Assembly: GCA_900321105.1 (NCBI GenBank)
Contig: OOHL01000001.1
Location: 121,617 to 185,616, forward strand
Length of the DNA: 64,000 nt
Origin: an uncultured Pseudomonadota bacterium
Lineage (GTDB): Bacteria; Pseudomonadota; Alphaproteobacteria; Rs-D84
Direction of reading: 5' to 3'
Under the pieces are notes generated by a model. It did no database searches and was not told the origin of the DNA. It worked only from the letters and a program-made list of their open reading frames with translations. The translations under genes and the position numbers were made by a program. This document shows, in pieces, positions 9,229 through 16,997 of the stretch. The stretch's first letter is position 1. Each line of letters opens with the position of its first letter.

Positions 9229-10557
9229 ATCATTATCAAAAGGATTTTCTGATTTTTGATATTCTATAATTATTGGCAAATGTTCCATCTTTAATGCCGT
9301 TGCGATACCGCGACGCAGATATCGTGTATAAGATTCAGGAATATCAGATGCGCCACCAACATTGATAGTAATTTTAATTGGATGGTGTCCGGTTTGACGT
9401 GCAAACTTAATTTTCATTGGACGTTTCAAACGCGACATAGGTGGTTGACGATCCGCTACTAATTTTTCAACGATACGATTTATTAAACTGGTCGGGGCAT
9501 CGGTATTTGATACGTCCCATTGTTCATAGATACGTTTAAAAAGATTTTGAACACCGGTTCCTTTTTCAGCGGATATTGCAAGTATAAGTGGTTTAATAAT
9601 TTGATGAAAAGAATTAGTAAATTGATGTTTTAATTTTAATAATTTTTCATCCCTTTCAACTTCTTCGACCAAATCCCATTTGTTAAGTGCGACACATAAA
9701 ATCTTGCCGGCATTATAAACACGTGCCGCGATGGACAGTGCCTGATTTTCAATGTTCTTGGTTGCATCGACTATCAAAATTACAATGTCAGATTTTTCAA
9801 TCGCATCCAAAGATTTTAATGCAGATAATGTTTCAACATCATCTGTGACCCCAGCCTTGCGACGAAGACCTGCGGTATCCATAATTACAATATCACGACC
9901 ATAAAAACGTGTTGGGATTTTTACAGTATCGCGTGTGATTCCCGGTGCATCCATAACGATTTGGCGATTTTCACCCAGGACGCGATTTACAAATGTGGAT
10001 TTCCCAACATTAGGTTGACCCAGAACTGCAACCTTTATTGTTTTGTCTTCGGTTTCGTTTTCTGTATTTTCGATTCCACCAATTTTATCAATGAATTCGT
10101 ATATTTCATCAAATCCGCGTTTGTGTTCTGCAGATATTAAAACAGGTTCGCCAAATCCCAGTTTATAGAAATCATGAATATCAGATAATCTTTTTGCAGA
10201 TTCAGATTTGTTTACCAAAAGCAGGGCAGGCGCTTTGCTTTTTTTATGAACCAGTTTTGCCCATTCTAAATCCATAGGGTTTAATCCAATGCGACCATCG
10301 ACAACAAATAAAATAGCATCAGCGTTTTCAATAGTTTTAATTGCCATATCTGTTGAATTTTGTGCAATACCAGATTTGGCATTTTCCAGACCCGCAGTAT
10401 CAAATACAGTCCATGGACGATTTGGAATTTTTCCAGAAATTGTATCGCGTGTGACACCTGGGCGATCGTGGACCAGTGCATCGCGTGAATTTGTTAATCC
10501 ATTAAAAAGCGTTGATTTGCCAGTGTTTGGTCGACCAACGATAACTATGTTTTTCAT
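9226..10557 (-). CDS. der: GTPase Der (EngA), two tandem GTP-binding domains
   Basis: GRPNTGKSTLFN and GQPNVGKSTFVN P-loops; start taken at MKNIVIVG (an alternative upstream Met is at 10569). Confidence 0.85.
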   Translation of the reverse strand: MKNIVIVGRPNTGKSTLFNGLTNSRDALVHDRPGVTRDTISGKIPNRPWTVFDTAGLENAKSGIAQNSTDMAIKTIENADAILFVVDGRIGLNPMDLEWAKLVHKKSKAPALLLVNKSESAKRLSDIHDFYKLGFGEPVLISAEHKRGFDEIYEFIDKIGGIENTENETEDKTIKVAVLGQPNVGKSTFVNRVLGENRQIVMDAPGITRDTVKIPTRFYGRDIVIMDTAGLRRKAGVTDDVETLSALKSLDAIEKSDIVILIVDATKNIENQALSIAARVYNAGKILCVALNKWDLVEEVERDEKLLKLKHQFTNSFHQIIKPLILAISAEKGTGVQNLFKRIYEQWDVSNTDAPTSLINRIVEKLVADRQPPMSRLKRPMKIKFARQTGHHPIKITINVGGASDIPESYTRYLRRGIATALKMEHLPIIIEYQKSENPFDND

Positions 10558-10625
10558 ATCTTTTTCCATTGATTTTTTATAATTATAAAGCAAAAATATA
10601 AATAATCAAACATTGGGGGTAAAAA

Positions 10626-11228
10626 ATGAAAGCAAAGAAAAAGAATTGGTTTTCGAAATTGTCTGATATATTCTTTCGTCCTAAATACTTTTTTTCACGC
10701 ATTGTCGCCGATGGTAAAATGGAAGACGCGATGTTAAAGGCTTTCCTTTGGGGGTTTGTTGGTGGAATATTGATTTTGATTATCAATTTATTTCGTGACG
10801 GACTGGCTGCATTTACAGTGTTTTCATTTTTCAAATCAATAATTATCTATCCGGTGTTGGCGGTTATGTTGCTGTTTATTACGGCGGGTTTGATGATGTT
10901 AGTGTCTGAAATCACAGGTGGTGAACGCGATTGGGAAATTGCAGTCAAAGGTATCGCATCAATTTTCTTTGTATATCCATTGGCGTTGTTGTTGAATGTG
11001 TTGGCATTTGATTGTCAATCGATTTGGGCGGTCAGTTTGCTGACAGATATATATATGGCATTTTTACTTTATAACATTGCGGTATATTGCATGCATGGCA
11101 AACGCATAAGTGTTTTATTTGTTGTAATGGTATGCTTCGTTTTGTTGGCGTGTTTGTATGTGTCAGATTACAAAACAGTTTGGTTTATGGTTAAAAACAT
11201 AGATGCAAATTCAATTTGTGTATTCTAG
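10626..11228 (+). CDS. Yip1-like multi-TM membrane protein
   Basis: 200 aa, 5 predicted TM segments. Confidence 0.4.
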   Translation: MKAKKKNWFSKLSDIFFRPKYFFSRIVADGKMEDAMLKAFLWGFVGGILILIINLFRDGLAAFTVFSFFKSIIIYPVLAVMLLFITAGLMMLVSEITGGERDWEIAVKGIASIFFVYPLALLLNVLAFDCQSIWAVSLLTDIYMAFLLYNIAVYCMHGKRISVLFVVMVCFVLLACLYVSDYKTVWFMVKNIDANSICVF

Positions 11229-11339
11229 GGAATATGAATACATACATATAGTTTTTATTATCTGTATTATATAAAATTAAGCACAGAATTTTTTTGTTTA
11301 CAATACAGCACAAGATGTTTTACACTGATTTTGAACCTG

Positions 11340-11530
11340 ATAATTGGGTTCGGGGCTGTCGAAAGCCTTGGTACATTCGGTGCGAAAGCATCGTTAAATG
11401 ATGTTGTGCGGTGTTTTTGCACCGATTCATATCCCCTGCGATTATGGTTGGGGGGCCGCGTACGTATATATAAATGTCGCGGAATCACCAATGTACTGAT
11501 TTTCGAACCCCCCGACCGCCCAATTGGTAG
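11340..11530. ncRNA. GC-rich structured noncoding element, candidate small RNA of unknown class
   Basis: about 50% GC in a roughly 33% GC genome; nested long-range pairings GGGTTCG/CGAACCC and GGTACATT(C)GGTG/CACCAATGTAC enclose three local hairpins; no plausible ORF. Confidence 0.25.
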
Positions 11531-11552
11531 CGTTTTTTATATTGGGGATAAA

Positions 11553-12500
11553 TTGTTTAAAATATTAAAGTATTTTTATTTAATTTATTTTGTATTTGTT
11601 ATCGCAAATACAGCGTATGCTGCGTCTTGCGCAACAGATTACGGTGTTGCGGTTCATCCTGTTGATCTGGATTTTAATATTAACAATCCTGAATATCCTG
11701 ATGAAATTACATTGACGGACAAAGGATTAAATACAGGTACATTTGTATTATCGGATGATGGAAATTGTTATTCGGGATATGAACCATACACGCGCGGTGG
11801 CGGTGATGTTTATCCATTAATAGAAGATTCAGATTTATGTGCGGATGGTTATTATCGTTCTGCTGGGAATTGTGTTGCGTTTACGGATGGTGGTTGTCCA
11901 ACAGGTCGTTATAATTCGGCGGTAAATATTGCGACATTTGTTGCATCAGAAGATGGTAATTGTTATTCCGGATTTGATGTTTATACGCGCAGCGGTGACG
12001 ATATATATCCATTGGTAGATTCGTCAAATTCGATATTGTGCCCGGCAGGTCAATATATGGCGAACGGAACATGTACGGCATATCCAATTGGCACATGTCC
12101 AGAAAATATGAAAAACACAACAACGAATTCTGCGACATGGTCGGCGATGACAAACGGTGTATGCCCATCTAATTATACAGAATATACAATATCAACCATT
12201 GAATACGCGTGTGACACGTATGTCAGTCACATAACATCCGAAACGCCGGCATGTTTGCTGATGTGTACAAATGGGCAAACTTTCTCGGAAGTAAATTCAT
12301 GTTCCGCGTTATGTGCCGATCATCATCAATTGATGACAGATACAGGTTTGGAATTCCCGATGTACACAACAAAACAAATCACGCCATCGTTGAATATACA
12401 GGTTGGGAATAATGTATGTTATGTGAATTTGGTCAGCGGTGCATCAGATGATGCGATAAATATAAAGTATAACAACACAACCTATCATACGGTGAAATAA
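11553..12500 (+). CDS. secreted Cys-rich protein with internal tandem repeats (TTG start)
   Basis: in-frame TTG preceded by GGGGA; signal peptide LFKILKYFYLIYFVFVIANTAYA; repeated DGNCYSGxxxYTRxGxDxYPL units; the annotated upstream extension covers the structured RNA-like region and is rejected. Confidence 0.5.
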   Translation: MFKILKYFYLIYFVFVIANTAYAASCATDYGVAVHPVDLDFNINNPEYPDEITLTDKGLNTGTFVLSDDGNCYSGYEPYTRGGGDVYPLIEDSDLCADGYYRSAGNCVAFTDGGCPTGRYNSAVNIATFVASEDGNCYSGFDVYTRSGDDIYPLVDSSNSILCPAGQYMANGTCTAYPIGTCPENMKNTTTNSATWSAMTNGVCPSNYTEYTISTIEYACDTYVSHITSETPACLLMCTNGQTFSEVNSCSALCADHHQLMTDTGLEFPMYTTKQITPSLNIQVGNNVCYVNLVSGASDDAINIKYNNTTYHTVK

Positions 12501-12557
12501 AGGATGAAAAAGGAAGAAGTAATTTTATAAAAAATTGCCCTGGTGGAAGAACCTTAT

Positions 12558-12735
12558 AAGTTCCGCCCCCGTGGGGGGGAGAATTAAAAGTTCTCCTCCT
12601 TTGGAGGAGTCCCCGCAGGGGGAGGTGGTAAGAGAGTGCAAATACTTGGAAAGACCACCCCGTCACTTCGTGCCACCCCTCCATAGAGGGGAACTAAGAA
12701 ATTCCGCCCCCGTGGGGGGGGAGAATATAAAAACT
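12558..12735. repeat. composite intergenic hairpin repeat, copy 1 (units A, B, C)
   Basis: ctcctcc-ttt-ggaggag, ccccc-gtg-ggggg and cccctc-cata-gagggg hairpins; unit C is repeated nearly verbatim at 13869..13947. Confidence 0.7.
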
Positions 12736-12742
12736 TTTATGC

Positions 12743-12783
12743 GGTGATGTTTTTTCCTCTTCCGTAAAAAAAATAACATCACC
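12743..12783 (+). terminator. long-loop hairpin (ggtgatgtt ... aacatcacc), possible terminator or processing site
   Basis: 9-bp perfect inverted repeat with a 23-nt loop. Confidence 0.35.
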
Positions 12784-12817
12784 GCGCCCGAGATAAAAAA
12801 CAAAGGAAGGAACAACA

Positions 12818-13226
12818 ATGAAACGCATAATGATATTTTTGATAATGATAATGGGAATATATTCAAACAAATACCGCGGTTGCGGTGTTAAATAAATTGG
12901 TTGGGGGCAGTGTTGATAATTCAACAACTGGACATCGATGGCAGGTTAACATGACGGATACCACCGCCGTCAAAGGCAAATCGTTATGTACAGGTATGCC
13001 TGGGGATTTTGCGGTTGTGAATACCGGTGTCGCCGATACAACCGATACCGGTTATCATTGCTATTGCAAAATGATGGCACCGGCAACATCGTATTGGGTA
13101 AATGCCAGTGGTTCATCGCCGTATGCGACTGAATCTGAATGTGAAAGCGGGTGTAACAGTGCATGTGCGAATTATATGGCAACAAATACAACATTTCGCA
13201 GCGCCGTATACGAAGCAGTGTGGTAA
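12818..13226 (+). pseudogene. frameshifted paralog of the DGR target gene
   Basis: a signal-peptide ORF MKRIMIFLIMIMG stops after 26 codons; the +1 frame (open from 12852) continues into a 113-aa ORF whose C-terminus (HCYCKMMAP..SYW...C.S.C..C.NY) parallels the active target (RYCWCKMTHP..SLW...C.S.C..C.NY). Confidence 0.5.
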
Positions 13227-13228
13227 GG

Positions 13229-13270
13229 GTTCTCCTCCTTCGGAGGAGTCCCCACAGGGTGAGAATAAAA
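13229..13270. repeat. composite hairpin repeat, short copy (unit B plus the tail of unit C)
   Basis: ctcctcc-ttc-ggaggag hairpin followed by gagaataaaa, as in the other copies. Confidence 0.6.
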
Positions 13271-13285
13271 CAAAAGGAAGAAAAA

Positions 13286-13756
13286 ATGAAAAAGATATGG
13301 ATATGTGTGTTAATGATAATGGTGTTTGTAATACCAGCGTTGGCTGTGTCGGTCTGTGCCAAAGACAGTGTTGTTACGGTTGTATTGGATCCATCAATCG
13401 GTGGTAATTCATATACATATAATAACAGCACAGGCGTGTGGAAAACGGTGTTTTCGTACGGCAATGTGTCGGGGGTCAGCACATGTTCAACCGTCGCCCC
13501 AACGGGTGGCAGGGGTTCAACCAATACCAGTGCAGGCACCCCATTGGATGCCGTTGCAGGCGATACATCGGGACGATATTGTTGGTGTAAAATGACACAC
13601 CCAATGTCTTCGCTTTGGGCGTTCCTCTACGACTACGGGTTTGCTTCGAATTGCGCTTCGAACTGTGCGACCATCTGCGGTAACTACGTCCGGAACGGCG
13701 GCGATTTGCGCGGCGGGCTGTTCGGTTCGGTCGCCGCTGCGAATGCAGCGTATTGA
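13286..13756 (+). CDS. DGR target (variable) protein: small secreted Cys-rich protein with the VR at its C-terminus
   Basis: AAGGAAG RBS; signal peptide MKKIWICVLMIMVFVIPALA; the last ~45 codons align with the TR except at TR adenines. Confidence 0.8.
   Translation: MKKIWICVLMIMVFVIPALAVSVCAKDSVVTVVLDPSIGGNSYTYNNSTGVWKTVFSYGNVSGVSTCSTVAPTGGRGSTNTSAGTPLDAVAGDTSGRYCWCKMTHPMSSLWAFLYDYGFASNCASNCATICGNYVRNGGDLRGGLFGSVAAANAAY
13605..13734 (+). repeat. DGR variable repeat (VR)
   Basis: 130 bp; 116/130 identical to the TR at 14065..14194; 13 of 14 mismatches lie at TR adenines, 1 is C to G. Confidence 0.85.
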
Positions 13757-13802
13757 TGTAACGCAAGGGCCGTGGCACGAACACGCGTGACACGATAATG
13801 CG

Positions 13803-13829
13803 CCCGACACCACGGCAAGTGGTGTCGGG
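13803..13829 (+). promoter_or_regulatory. GC-rich 10-bp stem-loop about 45 nt downstream of the VR (candidate DGR homing-enhancing hairpin or terminator)
   Basis: cccgacacca-cggcaag-tggtgtcggg perfect inverted repeat. Confidence 0.5.
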
Positions 13830-13837
13830 AATTAAAA

Positions 13838-13947
13838 TTTCTCCTCCTTTGGAGGAGTCCTTGGAAATACACCCCGTCACTTCGTGCCACCCCTTCATAG
13901 AGGGGAACTAAGAAGTTCCGCACCCGCGGGGGGGAGAACATAAAAAA
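13838..13947. repeat. composite intergenic hairpin repeat, copy 2 (units B and C)
   Basis: near-identical to 12591..12735. Confidence 0.7.
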
Positions 13948-14064
13948 CAGGAATAAAAACGAATCTTTGACAACAGGGTGTGATAAGTTGTATTGTTATG
14001 TTCAAGGGTATATCGCCGTATCGGTTGTGCGGTAGCTGATTCGTGGGGCGTGGCTGGGTTGTCG

Positions 14065-14194
14065 TGTCTTCGCTTTGGGCGTTCAACAACGACAACGGGA
14101 ATGCTTCGAATTGCGCTTCGAACTGTACGAACAACTGCGGTAACAACGTCCAGAACAACGCCGATTTGCGCGGCGGGCTGTTCGGTTCGGTCGC
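14065..14194 (+). repeat. DGR template repeat (TR), noncoding
   Basis: adenine-rich (about 28 A, many AAC/AAT triplets in the VR reading frame); matches the VR except at adenines. Confidence 0.85.
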
Positions 14195-14596
14195 TCCTTT
14201 GCAAGGTTATAACTTTGAATGCAAAGACAAAGTTTGGCTAACCTGTGGGACAAAGTGGTAAAACACTTTTCAGATGCGGATGTATCTGTTTATATATGCC
14301 TTGTCACATCAAAGGCGGGGCGGTATATCCTGTCCGAATACAAAGGACCAAACACAATACACAGGGGACATCTGGACTGGTAGGGTTTTTAACCTGAACG
14401 CCCTGGATGTCCAATACAAGTAGATTCGGGAACGAAGTGTATCGGAATCGTCACGGTATGCGCGCAGACACATAGTGTCGAGCGAATACGAGAATACATA
14501 ATTAGAAAAATCATAAAAACGGAGCTGTTTGATATGAGTTTTTATAGATTTTTATTATTGTGTATCGAGGAAAAAAATAAAACGAAGAGATAATAA

Positions 14597-14923
14597 ATGA
14601 CTTTAGATGAAATTAAAAAATTAGATGCAACATCTTGTCCAAGATTTTCGGCGTTCGCTAAAAATCAATTACCAATGCCGGGAAATAAAAAACGCCTTGA
14701 TGATATTTTAAACCGCGAAATTACTGTTATTGATTATCGAATTCGTAAATCTACGAAACGTGATGGCACCGAATGTTTACAAATGCAATTTTTACTGGGT
14801 GATGAAGTCTGTGTTGTTTTTACCGGCAGCAGCGTTTTAATCAACCAAATCAAAGAATCCAAAGATAATATTCCTTTTACTGCAACTTTGGTCAAAATGG
14901 ACAGATATTATTCTTTTTCTTGA
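14597..14923 (+). CDS. DGR accessory protein (not obviously Avd-like), 108 aa, ends 4 nt before the RT start
   Basis: position between TR and RT; beta-rich composition rather than a basic helical bundle. Confidence 0.45.
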   Translation: MTLDEIKKLDATSCPRFSAFAKNQLPMPGNKKRLDDILNREITVIDYRIRKSTKRDGTECLQMQFLLGDEVCVVFTGSSVLINQIKESKDNIPFTATLVKMDRYYSFS

Positions 14924-14927
14924 AACG

Positions 14928-15956
14928 ATGAAACGTTATAAAAATCTTTGGGATAAATTTATTTCTATGGAAAATCTGGAATTAGCAGCAAAAAAAGCAG
15001 TTAAATCCAAAAAAAATAAACCAGAAACAAAACTGTTTTTAGAACATAAAACAGAATTCTTGCTGAAATTACAACAAATGTTAATTGATGGGAATTTTAA
15101 TACATCCCAATATAAAGTTCGCAGAATTTTTGAACCAAAAGAAAGACTGATTTATATTTTACCCCTTTATCCAGATCATATTGTGCATCATGCGTTGATA
15201 AATATTCTGGGACCAATTTGGCAAAGTGGTTTTATTCGTGATTCTTATGCCTGTATCCCAGGCAGGGGATTGCATGCCGCATCAACCGCGATAATGAAAT
15301 TTATTCGTCGAAATAAATATGTTCTGCAATGCGATATTCGCAAATTTTATCCGTCCATAAATCATGATGTAATGTTTAATATAATAAAAAAGAAAATTGG
15401 CGATAAACGATTGTTGAATTTGTTACATAATATTATATGGTCATGTGGTGACGAAACAAATCTGCCAATTGGTAATTTAACATCACAATGGATGGGAAAT
15501 GTTTATATGAACGAATTGGATCATTTTGTAAAAGAACAATTACGATGCACGGACTATATTCGTTATTGTGATGATTTTTGTTTGTTCGCAAATGATAAAA
15601 AAACTTTGCATGAATATGAAAATAAATTGCATCAATTTGTGCGTGATAAATTAAAATTGGTATTTTCTAAATCTGTAATTCGAGTTGTTGCAAATGGGGT
15701 TGCGTTTATTGGTTATCGGCATTTCAAAAAATTTATATTGTTGCGAAGATATGGTGCTAAAAAAATGCGAAAACGTATTCTGCATATTGCAAAATACAGG
15801 GATAAATCTGATTTGGCAATTGGACAATTAGCGGCATATCATGGTTGGGCTAAATGGTGTTGCAGTCATAATTTTCTGACAGACGTTTGCAATCGTGCAA
15901 AAGAAATATCTGAAAAAACAGGTCAATTTATTTTTTGCAATTTGTTCAAGAATTAA
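14928..15956 (+). CDS. DGR-type reverse transcriptase
   Basis: RT motifs QCDIRKFYPSI, LPIGNLTSQ (the DGR-specific SQ motif) and YIRYCDDF (YxDD); 342 aa, typical DGR RT size. Confidence 0.85.
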   Translation: MKRYKNLWDKFISMENLELAAKKAVKSKKNKPETKLFLEHKTEFLLKLQQMLIDGNFNTSQYKVRRIFEPKERLIYILPLYPDHIVHHALINILGPIWQSGFIRDSYACIPGRGLHAASTAIMKFIRRNKYVLQCDIRKFYPSINHDVMFNIIKKKIGDKRLLNLLHNIIWSCGDETNLPIGNLTSQWMGNVYMNELDHFVKEQLRCTDYIRYCDDFCLFANDKKTLHEYENKLHQFVRDKLKLVFSKSVIRVVANGVAFIGYRHFKKFILLRRYGAKKMRKRILHIAKYRDKSDLAIGQLAAYHGWAKWCCSHNFLTDVCNRAKEISEKTGQFIFCNLFKN

Positions 15957-15962
15957 CTGATT

Positions 15963-16997
15963 TTAAAATCCAGTTTTTATACCAACTGCAAAAAATGGTG
16001 TTGTGTCGGTTATGCCGCCTGACATAAATATCGCCGTATGTTCGGTGTATTTATAACGAAACGATGCGATAAGTGTATGCAAATAATCGCCTTCCATTTC
16101 TGCGCCTGTTATTTCGTCATGATGTGTGAATAAATTTGTGTCTGAATATATATAGTTTAATGAAACACTGCTTTGCAGGAAATCATAACTGACCCCCGTG
16201 CCAAGAACCAATCCATCTGCTGTTTTCATAATTGGTTTTTCATCATAAATCAAACGCGATGATAATCCAAAAACCCAACTGTTATATTGCAGGTTTGCAC
16301 CCAATGCAACCTGACCGCGCCAATCGGCAGTGACCGGTGGTGTAAATGAATTTTCTTCATATCCATCTGGTTTGTCCATATATGAAAGTGCGATGGAATA
16401 GGCGGCCTTTAATTTTCCAAATGGCTGTTTGAATTTTGCCGCTGTATCAATCGCAAAATCAAAATCACCACCAGGACCCGCAACAGAAATTCCATATTGA
16501 CCGTATTCTGTTGATATCGTCGCCAGGTTTAATCGCAATGCATCGTGGCCTGTTGTTGCGGTTGTATCAGATATCAAAACCTTGTCCAAATCTAACTTGT
16601 CCTGCAATATTGATTTATTGTTTATACGCAAATAACCAACGTCTGGTAAACCCAATCCCATTTTACGTGCGATGGAATATGTTAAACCAAATTCAGCACG
16701 TCCAACGGTTCTGTCTTCGAATAATACAAATGCATCGTGGACATATTCGTCATCGTCAACGCATGCGGCATCAATTGAATAAACCGCACCAATTCTTTGT
16801 GATTGATTTAAACGATAAAGTGCCGTTGCCTTGATGTCCCAATCGTCAATAAACATTGGTTTGTCATCACGCGTTTCCAAGAACCCGACCATACCATCGG
16901 CATCTAATTTGAATTTCCAATTATCAACCGTATAATCCAACGCGTATGCGTTCGTTGCGAATAAAGATGCCAATGCAATCAAAGATATTTTTTTCAT
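15963..16997 (-). CDS. outer-membrane beta-barrel (porin-like) protein
   Basis: signal peptide MKKISLIALASLFATNAYA; alternating amphipathic strands; C-terminal ...GIKTGF. Confidence 0.55.
   Translation of the reverse strand: MKKISLIALASLFATNAYALDYTVDNWKFKLDADGMVGFLETRDDKPMFIDDWDIKATALYRLNQSQRIGAVYSIDAACVDDDEYVHDAFVLFEDRTVGRAEFGLTYSIARKMGLGLPDVGYLRINNKSILQDKLDLDKVLISDTTATTGHDALRLNLATISTEYGQYGISVAGPGGDFDFAIDTAAKFKQPFGKLKAAYSIALSYMDKPDGYEENSFTPPVTADWRGQVALGANLQYNSWVFGLSSRLIYDEKPIMKTADGLVLGTGVSYDFLQSSVSLNYIYSDTNLFTHHDEITGAEMEGDYLHTLIASFRYKYTEHTAIFMSGGITDTTPFFAVGIKTGF

Follow-up and report, generated by a model that had tools for sequence, protein, structure and literature searches.

Three consecutive genes at positions 11553-13756 of the stretch of contig OOHL01000001.1 analysed here (64 kb, hereafter the window; G+C content 36%) each encode a product with a hydrophobic, signal-peptide-like N-terminus, and the last of them ends in a repeat that belongs to a diversity-generating retroelement (DGR). 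This raises the question of how the three genes are related to each other and to the DGR, and of what is to be made of the second gene, whose reading frame is broken. A previous interpretation of the locus, the sequence-only reading, had described an array of paralogous DGR targets; the three + strand open reading frames (ORFs) that it placed at about 11553-12500, 12818-13226 and 13286-13756, with signal-peptide-like N-termini, are correct in coordinates and frame. We consider it likely that the locus comprises a chromosomal DGR attached to a conserved cassette of three genes for secreted proteins, in which genes 2 and 3 are the invariant and the hypermutated member of a pair of paralogs and gene 1 is unrelated to either. 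Every gene between 11553 and 15956 lies on the + strand, and the features that carry the argument are as follows (aa, amino acids; nt, nucleotides).

11553..12500, + strand: gene 1, 315 aa, secreted, acidic (isoelectric point 4.2), 16 Cys; first of the conserved triad
12818..13226, + strand: gene 2, paralog of the DGR target without diversification; frame broken in this assembly
13286..13756, + strand: gene 3, DGR target, 156 aa; signal peptide, beta-sheet, C-terminal helices
13605..13734, + strand: variable repeat (VR), codons 107-150 of gene 3; 130-nt repeat
13735..13829, + strand: hairpins after the VR, candidate DGR target-recognition structures
14065..14194, + strand: template repeat (TR), 28 adenines, 16 adenine-containing codons
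14195..14415, + strand: non-coding stretch 3' of the TR; presumably belongs to the DGR RNA, as a spacer or priming region
14597..14923, + strand: accessory ORF, 108 aa, basic (isoelectric point 8.8); neighbour of the reverse transcriptase gene
14928..15956, + strand: DGR reverse transcriptase (RT), 342 aa; Pfam RVT_1

The two 130-nt repeats, at 13605-13734 and 14065-14194, differ at 14 positions. Because 13 of these differences sit at adenines of the downstream copy, the downstream copy is assigned as the TR and the end of gene 3 as the VR; the sole mismatch outside the adenines, at 13701/14161, is a C in the TR and a G in the VR, and changes codon 139 from Ala to Gly. As had been noticed before, the TR is matched by gene 3 alone, and blastn and tblastn searches with the TR over the whole 64 kb found no second VR and no other family-like sequence. 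Twelve of the 16 adenine-containing codons of the TR are AAY, mutation to a stop codon is impossible for any of the 16, and according to the codon table about 10^16.5 protein variants are possible from this template. The variable codons of gene 3 are 114-117, 119, 122, 126, 128-130, 133, 134, 136-138 and 140. Across the aligned gene 3 homologs hypervariability is limited to the TR-adenine codons, and at loci of relatives the share of VR/TR mismatches that fall on TR adenines is 8/8 (L018), 12/12 (L019), 11/11 (L028), 13/13 (L042), 9/9 (L046) and 11/11 (L003).

The VR ends 22 nt 5' of the stop codon of gene 3, and its last ~32 nt (13703-13734) are A-free, G+C-rich and identical between VR and TR, so that this 3' end is presumed to be the initiation of mutagenic homing (IMH) sequence. 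Two hairpins follow, one at 13735-13750 with a 6-bp stem and the loop GAAT, and one at 13803-13829 with an 11-bp stem and the loop GGCAA; the DNA fold of 13735-13870 has a computed energy of -39.2 kcal/mol (z = -6.8), and the hairpin region is conserved at the nucleotide level 3' of the VR at the distant locus L017. These hairpins are candidates for the structures by which the DGR recognizes its target. The TR together with ~60 nt upstream and ~220 nt of non-coding sequence downstream (14005-14415) is 89-95% conserved across species, as measured by blastn of the intergenic regions of L018, L019 and L003, while proteins of the species that share it are only 72-86% identical. The segment is probably the functional DGR RNA.

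The RT matches RVT_1 of Pfam (1.9e-13) and phrog_1423 (2.7e-99), and its top match among PDB sequences is the reverse-transcriptase chain 8ub7 (2e-48 over 317 residues), which we take to be the Bordetella phage DGR RT. The 108-aa ORF lies directly upstream of the RT gene in 11/11 RT-bearing loci, where its products are 54-89% identical. Searches of this ORF against Pfam, NCBIfam, PHROG and PDB sequences gave no match, and nothing in it is recognisable as Avd. Its product could be an Avd that has diverged strongly or an accessory protein of another kind. Poor conservation has been reported for Avd genes (PMC5758913). In the arrangement that we propose, the TR, the 108-aa accessory ORF and the RT would make up a DGR that is joined to the triad of secreted-protein genes. 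By analogy with known DGRs, the TR RNA would be reverse-transcribed with adenine-specific errors, and the complementary DNA would replace the VR, rewriting 16 codons mainly on helices between fixed cysteines.

The relationship among the three genes differs from what had been claimed, namely that all of them are paralogs. The claim is sound for genes 2 and 3. BLASTP aligns their C-terminal 58 residues at E=7e-9, and hhalign, with profiles made from 18 and 38 homologs, respectively, aligns them over the full length (99.7% probability, E=1.3e-26, 146 columns), although the proteins are only ~30% identical. The shared C.CKM...W...C...C...C scaffold, which had been recognized by inspection, is thus upheld; invariant in the joint alignment are W52, G63, C67, C99-x-C101, W111, C123, C127, C131 and R142, with an additional invariant Cys immediately 3' of the signal peptide. 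By these comparisons genes 2 and 3 are paralogs. The claim does not extend to gene 1, which by the same kinds of comparison is unrelated to genes 2 and 3: BLASTP against them gave E values of 0.3 or worse, and profile-profile comparison gave probabilities of 2% and 6%, with the signal peptide alone aligned. Gene 1 as a third paralog is ruled out on these grounds.

Gene 1 nevertheless belongs to the cassette. Its ortholog in L003 is 71% identical and syntenic, 5' of the gene 2 and gene 3 orthologs, and all of its homologs (n=27) occur in the same lineage. The start codon is uncertain, with TTG at 11553 taken here and TTG at 11331 chosen by gene callers, and the AlphaFold2 (AF2) model is too poor for a statement about the fold (predicted local distance difference test score, pLDDT, 37.5). 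The gene contains a tandem internal duplication (11728-11835 and 11923-12030, 71% nucleotide identity) with a repeat unit of ~65 aa and the motif DGNCYSG...YPL...LC..G.Y...G.C; shorter homologs of 235-250 aa span 62% of the protein and apparently have one unit fewer.

Gene 2 had been regarded as an older target that has drifted, or as a silent copy, and neither view agrees with its orthologs. Its homologs (n=29) are mostly 142-148 aa long, and gene-2-type genes are intact at almost every locus, with a ribosome-binding site (RBS), an ATG and a signal peptide; the search of other genomes for an intact middle gene, which had been recommended, has therefore succeeded. The ratio of nonsynonymous to synonymous substitution rates (dN/dS) among the orthologs is 0.07-0.49, a rough estimate since dS is saturated. 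Gene 2 orthologs are conserved in the stretch that corresponds to the VR, and column entropy there is low at places that are hypervariable in gene 3. At the fetched loci, 39/77 gene-3-type ORFs match one of nine TRs, as against 0/43 gene-2-type ORFs. In the window itself the 3' end of gene 2 reaches at most ~65% column identity to the VR and TR, and its stop codon is followed by a short palindromic repeat only; an IMH and hairpins such as those after gene 3 are absent. On this evidence gene 2 is an orthologous lineage of its own, under purifying selection and never a DGR target. A drifted old target is ruled out by the constraint, the intact orthologs and the lack of TR matches, and a silent copy by the gene's own RBS, ATG and signal peptide, by the constraint and by the absence of a VR tract.

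Genes 2 and 3 would then be paralogs of ancient origin that share one small domain, in which Cys-bearing helices come after a five-stranded sheet; gene 3 alone carries the VR, the A-free IMH and the downstream hairpins. Gene 2 would represent a constant partner lineage with the same scaffold, fixed residues and purifying selection, and gene 1, unrelated to both, would accompany the pair with an acidic, Cys-rich secreted protein. We infer that the products of the triad would make up, or be displayed on, a ligand-binding structure that is surface-exposed or secreted, to which gene 3 would provide the variable face and gene 2 the constant one.

The distribution of the cassette was obtained from a scan of species-representative genomes with the gene 3 alignment, which yielded 69 loci. 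Nearly all of them are in Candidatus Enterousia or other alphaproteobacterial metagenome-assembled genomes (MAGs) from rumen, sheep, buffalo and horse gut, and the closest relatives of the window are 85% identical in gene 3 and 86% in the RT. The host is probably a Candidatus Enterousia-like gut alphaproteobacterium with a reduced genome, judging from these relatives; genomes of less than 1 Mb and a partner-dependent lifestyle have been described for Enterousia (order Rs-D84; PMC12306168). The order gene-1-like, gene-2-like, gene-3-like is found at ~40 of the 69 loci, and the accessory ORF and RT adjoin the cassette at 11 fetched loci only. The triad order is kept both in L003, with a DGR, and in L017, without an adjacent one.

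Many Enterousia MAGs have several genes of the gene 3 type, and one genome can hold as many as five to seven loci of the family. In the horse-faeces MAG JAKSTC01, the TR at L042 7690-7825 matches six VRs on five contigs (L042, L045, L050, L053 and L055), with 13/13 to 13/23 of the mismatches at TR adenines; the adjacent VR has 13/13 and the other five are remote. Most targets of this multi-target DGR are solitary, without gene 1 or gene 2 neighbours. The L017 cassette is 38-51% identical to that of the window at the protein level and lacks an adjacent RT, yet its VR equals the window's TR at the non-adenine positions and is followed by the same hairpin region. From the remote VRs in relatives and from the VR of L017, the DGR appears to serve gene-3-type genes in trans in these relatives. 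The idea of a family of DGR targets thus has merit for gene 3, which is multi-copy at the genus level with six VRs under one TR, and fails for gene 2, which is untargeted.

Similarity between the window and L017 is mosaic. The segments 12353-12589, 12699-12865, 13212-13324 and 13571-13860 correspond to parts of L017 7680-9151; gene ends, intergenic sequences and signal-peptide coding regions are 93-98% identical in nucleotides, as opposed to 38-51% protein identity in the gene bodies. The pattern points to cassettes that exchange sequence by gene conversion, or to L017 being the second of two loci in a closely related genome.

We now turn to the break in gene 2. The frames had been read correctly: the ATG is at 12818, the signal-peptide frame stops at 12893-12895, and the body continues in the +1 frame, which is open from 12852, has a GTG at 12885 and ends with the stop codon at 13224-13226. 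The truncated ORF (P0115) is 113 aa long, and an exact look-up of its sequence gave no entry. Its interpretation as a +1 frameshift was in error, since DNA alignments with L001, L003 and L007 have a clean 26-nt gap after 12865. The junction, 12865/12866, reads TATATTC|AAACAAAT, and the sequence around the break is ...GGGAATATATTC|AAACAAATACCGCGG..., where intact orthologs (142-148 aa) read ...GIYSAEAVTLCKKTNTAVAVL... in the protein. Missing are codons 17-25 (AHAVTLCKK), nine codons with the A-x-A cleavage site and the invariant Cys among them, and therefore a ribosomal or polymerase slip cannot restore the normal protein. Inspection of the junction revealed no homopolymer or short tandem repeat, and no Shine-Dalgarno-like sequence is found 5' of the GTG at 12885, from which the product would lack a signal peptide. 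As read from the alignments, the break is a 26-nt deletion and neither a 1-nt shift nor a slippage site. Slippage or programmed frameshifting is ruled out by the same alignments, in which the alleles differ by 26 and 55 nt.

Near-identical assemblies bear on the origin of this deletion. L007 (ERZ27279860, 251-kb contig) has 0 mismatches to the window over 3.2 kb and 2.2 kb, is base-identical save for indels, and retains the 26 nt, so that its gene 2 is an intact 144-aa gene. L008 (ERZ1051849) carries a 55-nt deletion in gene 2 with the same left edge as in the window. A second site, after 13860, behaves in a similar way: L007 and L009 are full length, and the window and L008 lack 33 and 40 nt, respectively, from a common left edge. 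Whether gene 2 has suffered a real strain-level loss or an error in joining the assembly seems to us about evenly balanced.

The first explanation, to which we give slightly short of an even chance, is an artefact of assembly or scaffolding, the case that the sequence-only reading had itself named as refuting its view: the intact 144-aa gene would be present in the organism, and bases would have dropped out when two contigs were joined at the edge of a repeat. It is consistent with the intact gene 2 of L007 and with the occurrence of the intact protein (P0143) on 5 contigs. The L008 contig, of 222,568 bp, compares with a contig of 223,769 bp that has the window's truncated ORF, and the two differ in the extent of the deletion from a shared left edge. 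The losses of 33 and 40 nt at the intergenic repeat are nested in the same way. Moreover, the left edges of both sites coincide with the ends of blocks that are 93-98% nucleotide-identical to the paralogous cassette L017, and independent contigs, from another sample, end at 12853 and 13797. On the other hand, de Bruijn assemblers seldom produce clean deletions without a shared k-mer, and sequence is missing at both sites in two assemblies.

Alternatively, the deletion could be real, an explanation that we hold to be a serious one with less than an even chance. Gene 2 would have been lost in this strain by one-off decay or by aberrant recombination at the edge of a shared block, and the L008 lineage would then have lost 29 nt more; an AAA...AAA microhomology flanks the lost segment. 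The nested series in two assemblies fits a progression from intact to -26 nt to -55 nt, both deleted alleles shift the frame, and the mosaic identity among cassettes shows that their junctions recombine or homogenise. However, equal nesting at a non-coding repeat is hard to reconcile with selection on gene 2, the intact allele is the commoner one, and no independent sample with the junction was found; a scan of JGI metagenomes for the intact and the 26-nt-deleted alleles returned 0 matches for both.

By far the weakest explanation, and in our judgement a very improbable one, is that of the sequence-only reading, in which genes 1 and 2 are drifted or silent donors in an array of DGR-target paralogs and gene 2 is a reversible slippage switch: the adjacency of the paralogous genes 2 and 3, the several gene-3-type copies under one TR in relatives and the near-identity of cassette junctions, as in recombining gene families, speak for it, but gene 1 is unrelated, gene 2 has its own expression signals and is intact and constrained in relatives with no TR match, the break removes invariant residues at a place without a repeat tract, and DGRs reportedly copy from the TR rather than from paralogous genes, which is said to be their established mechanism.

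Returning to the cassette with one constant and one hypermutated paralog, the nature of the diversified protein is of particular interest. None of the gene 3 homologs (n=113) contains a Pfam domain. Invariant residues of gene 3 in the family alignment are C24, C67, C99, W100, C101, C123, C127 and C131. The AF2 model of gene 3, built with 38 homologs, has a pLDDT of 84.9 (>93 for residues 41-150) and consists of five strands followed by helices 120-137, 139-147 and 149-155. The helices of the domain shared by genes 2 and 3 carry Cys at i, i+4 and i+8 (C123, C127 and C131 in gene 3). The variable residues (114-140) are located at the end of strand 112-116 and along helices 120-147, interleaved with these three cysteines. 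We infer from the model that the helix is held to the sheet by C123, C127 and C131, which would pair with the cysteines C67, C99 and C101 of the sheet.

A C-type-lectin-like fold, which had been raised for this domain, finds no support in these comparisons. Foldseek searches with the model gave best E values of 0.8 in the PDB and 0.95 among viral models, gene 3 has no Pfam match at E up to 1 and no NCBIfam or PHROG match, and the family profile has none among PDB sequences at E up to 10; a match to FGE-sulfatase, DUF1566, DUF823, Fib_succ_major, Mtd or a solved variable protein was not found. Since Foldseek finds no similar structure, the fold of gene 3 is predicted not to be a C-type lectin. 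To our knowledge, all solved DGR variable proteins have the C-type lectin fold. A large survey likewise found annotated VR regions of DGRs to be 'systematically' C-Lec (PMC8144416).

The profile of the domain common to genes 2 and 3, named CWCK, collects an uncurated family of 2091 cluster representatives, 890 of them at E of 1e-10 or better. Giant proteins carry 2-7 tandem copies of the domain beside Listeria-Bacteroides repeats, which supports an extracellular role. Three of the giants (P0172, P0173 and P0179; 2382-6218 aa) have 5-7 copies together with Listeria-Bacteroides repeats, and one of these has a C-terminal Endonuclease I domain. The gene 3 target probably belongs to an uncurated extracellular domain family with a new fold, as far as the model indicates. 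Tentatively, and with more doubt than confidence, we go further and propose that this domain is an undescribed scaffold for DGR hypervariation distinct from the C-type lectin, a sheet joined by three disulfide staples to a helix whose free face varies. Its variable chain would have an invariant paralog as partner and a third, Cys-rich protein as the last component; the whole would be amplified to several copies in sub-megabase, partner-dependent gut Alphaproteobacteria, and would be served, partly in trans, by one DGR with an accessory protein unrelated to Avd.

Compared with the prototypical DGRs (Mtd of Bordetella phage BPP-1, TvpA of Treponema denticola, LdtA of Legionella and TaqVP of Thermus), the locus has the same adenine-specific TR/VR pair, the same position of the VR, which is C-terminal in a secreted or surface protein, hairpins after the VR and an IMH end that is A-free and G+C-rich, AAY-rich TR codons immune to stop mutation, and an RT homologous to 8ub7 (2e-48). 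It differs in its accessory ORF, which is not recognisable as Avd, and in its order of target, TR, accessory ORF and RT. Unlike the C-type-lectin variable proteins, gene 3 has no match to FGE-sulfatase, DUF1566 or Mtd. Multi-target DGRs, with several VR-bearing paralogs per TR, were described by Wu et al. 2018 (PMC5758913), and the horse-gut relative, with one TR for six gene-3-type VRs, resembles them; the window does not, since it contains one VR in 64 kb and the adjacent paralog gene 2 is not a second target. In the DGR literature that we searched, the word "paralog" does not occur and nothing is said about this protein family or about DGRs of Enterousia, although absence there is no proof.

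Silent-cassette antigenic variation systems, such as Neisseria pilE/pilS and Borrelia vlsE, share with the locus an array of paralogs with near-identical junctions around divergent bodies. In contrast to a silent cassette, however, gene 2 is complete, with expression signals of its own, purifying selection, ~30% identity and no VR tract, and the variation of gene 3 is wholly accounted for by the TR. Phase-variable contingency loci switch by slipped-strand mispairing. Gene 2 is like them in that the break lies just 3' of the signal peptide and that in-frame and out-of-frame alleles occur in near-identical strains; it is unlike them in having no repeat tract, alleles that differ by 26 and 55 nt, and an irreversible loss of conserved codons. 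By the usual marks of slipped-strand contingency genes, a repeat tract and alleles that differ by repeat units, gene 2 is not one of them, and the proposal of a switchable slippage site is abandoned.

The intergenic regions contain the remaining features of the locus.

12553..12724, no strand: palindromic repeat block, G+C-rich, intergenic, full-length copy; repeat families D3-D5
12593-12609, no strand: hairpin CTCCTCCTTTGGAGGAG, inside the full-length G+C-rich palindromic block
13228..13263, no strand: palindromic repeat, short G+C-rich copy between genes 2 and 3; CTCCTCCTTCGGAGGAG at 13232-13248
13819..13938, no strand: palindromic repeat block, third G+C-rich copy; 33 nt short after 13860 compared with L007 and L009
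13967..13996, + strand: promoter-like site upstream of the TR (TTGACA, 18-nt spacer, TATTGT); consensus match only

The G+C-rich palindromic elements share the core CTCCTCCTTYGGAGGAG, and one copy lies 3' of each of genes 1, 2 and 3. The 17-mer palindrome occurs in 3 copies in the 64 kb, all within the gene cluster, where 0 are expected, and related elements also border the cassettes in L003 and L017. A terminator, an RNA stabiliser and a recombination site are candidate roles. An Rfam scan of 10500-16100 gave no hit over threshold, the top one being sRNA-Xcc1 (27.8 bits against a gathering score of 53).

Several points weigh against the interpretation of the locus given here. The signal peptides were assessed by eye. 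The disulfide pattern and the display of variable residues on the helices are predictions of a single AF2 model, and the idea of a complex of the three products is drawn from conserved adjacency. The dN/dS values are rough for the reason mentioned above, and the label of an Enterousia-like host follows from the closest relatives. Finally, the VR is the same in three near-identical assemblies, so that current activity of the DGR in this strain can only be presumed.

The interest of the locus lies in the scaffold and in the pair of fixed and variable paralogs rather than in the frame break of gene 2, where the supposed "frameshift switch" is a deletion and possibly an assembly error. If true, a second, unrelated DGR scaffold that tolerates ~10^16 variants would show how massive variation is accommodated and would give engineering a very small (~130-residue), disulfide-stabilised base. 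The never-diversified paralog beside the target provides a natural comparison of fixed and variable forms of one domain, and hints at a two-chain binding module. For the organisms themselves, which are reported to have genomes smaller than 1 Mb and to depend on partners (PMC12306168), the presence of five to seven family loci suggests a central role of these proteins in contact with the host or partner.

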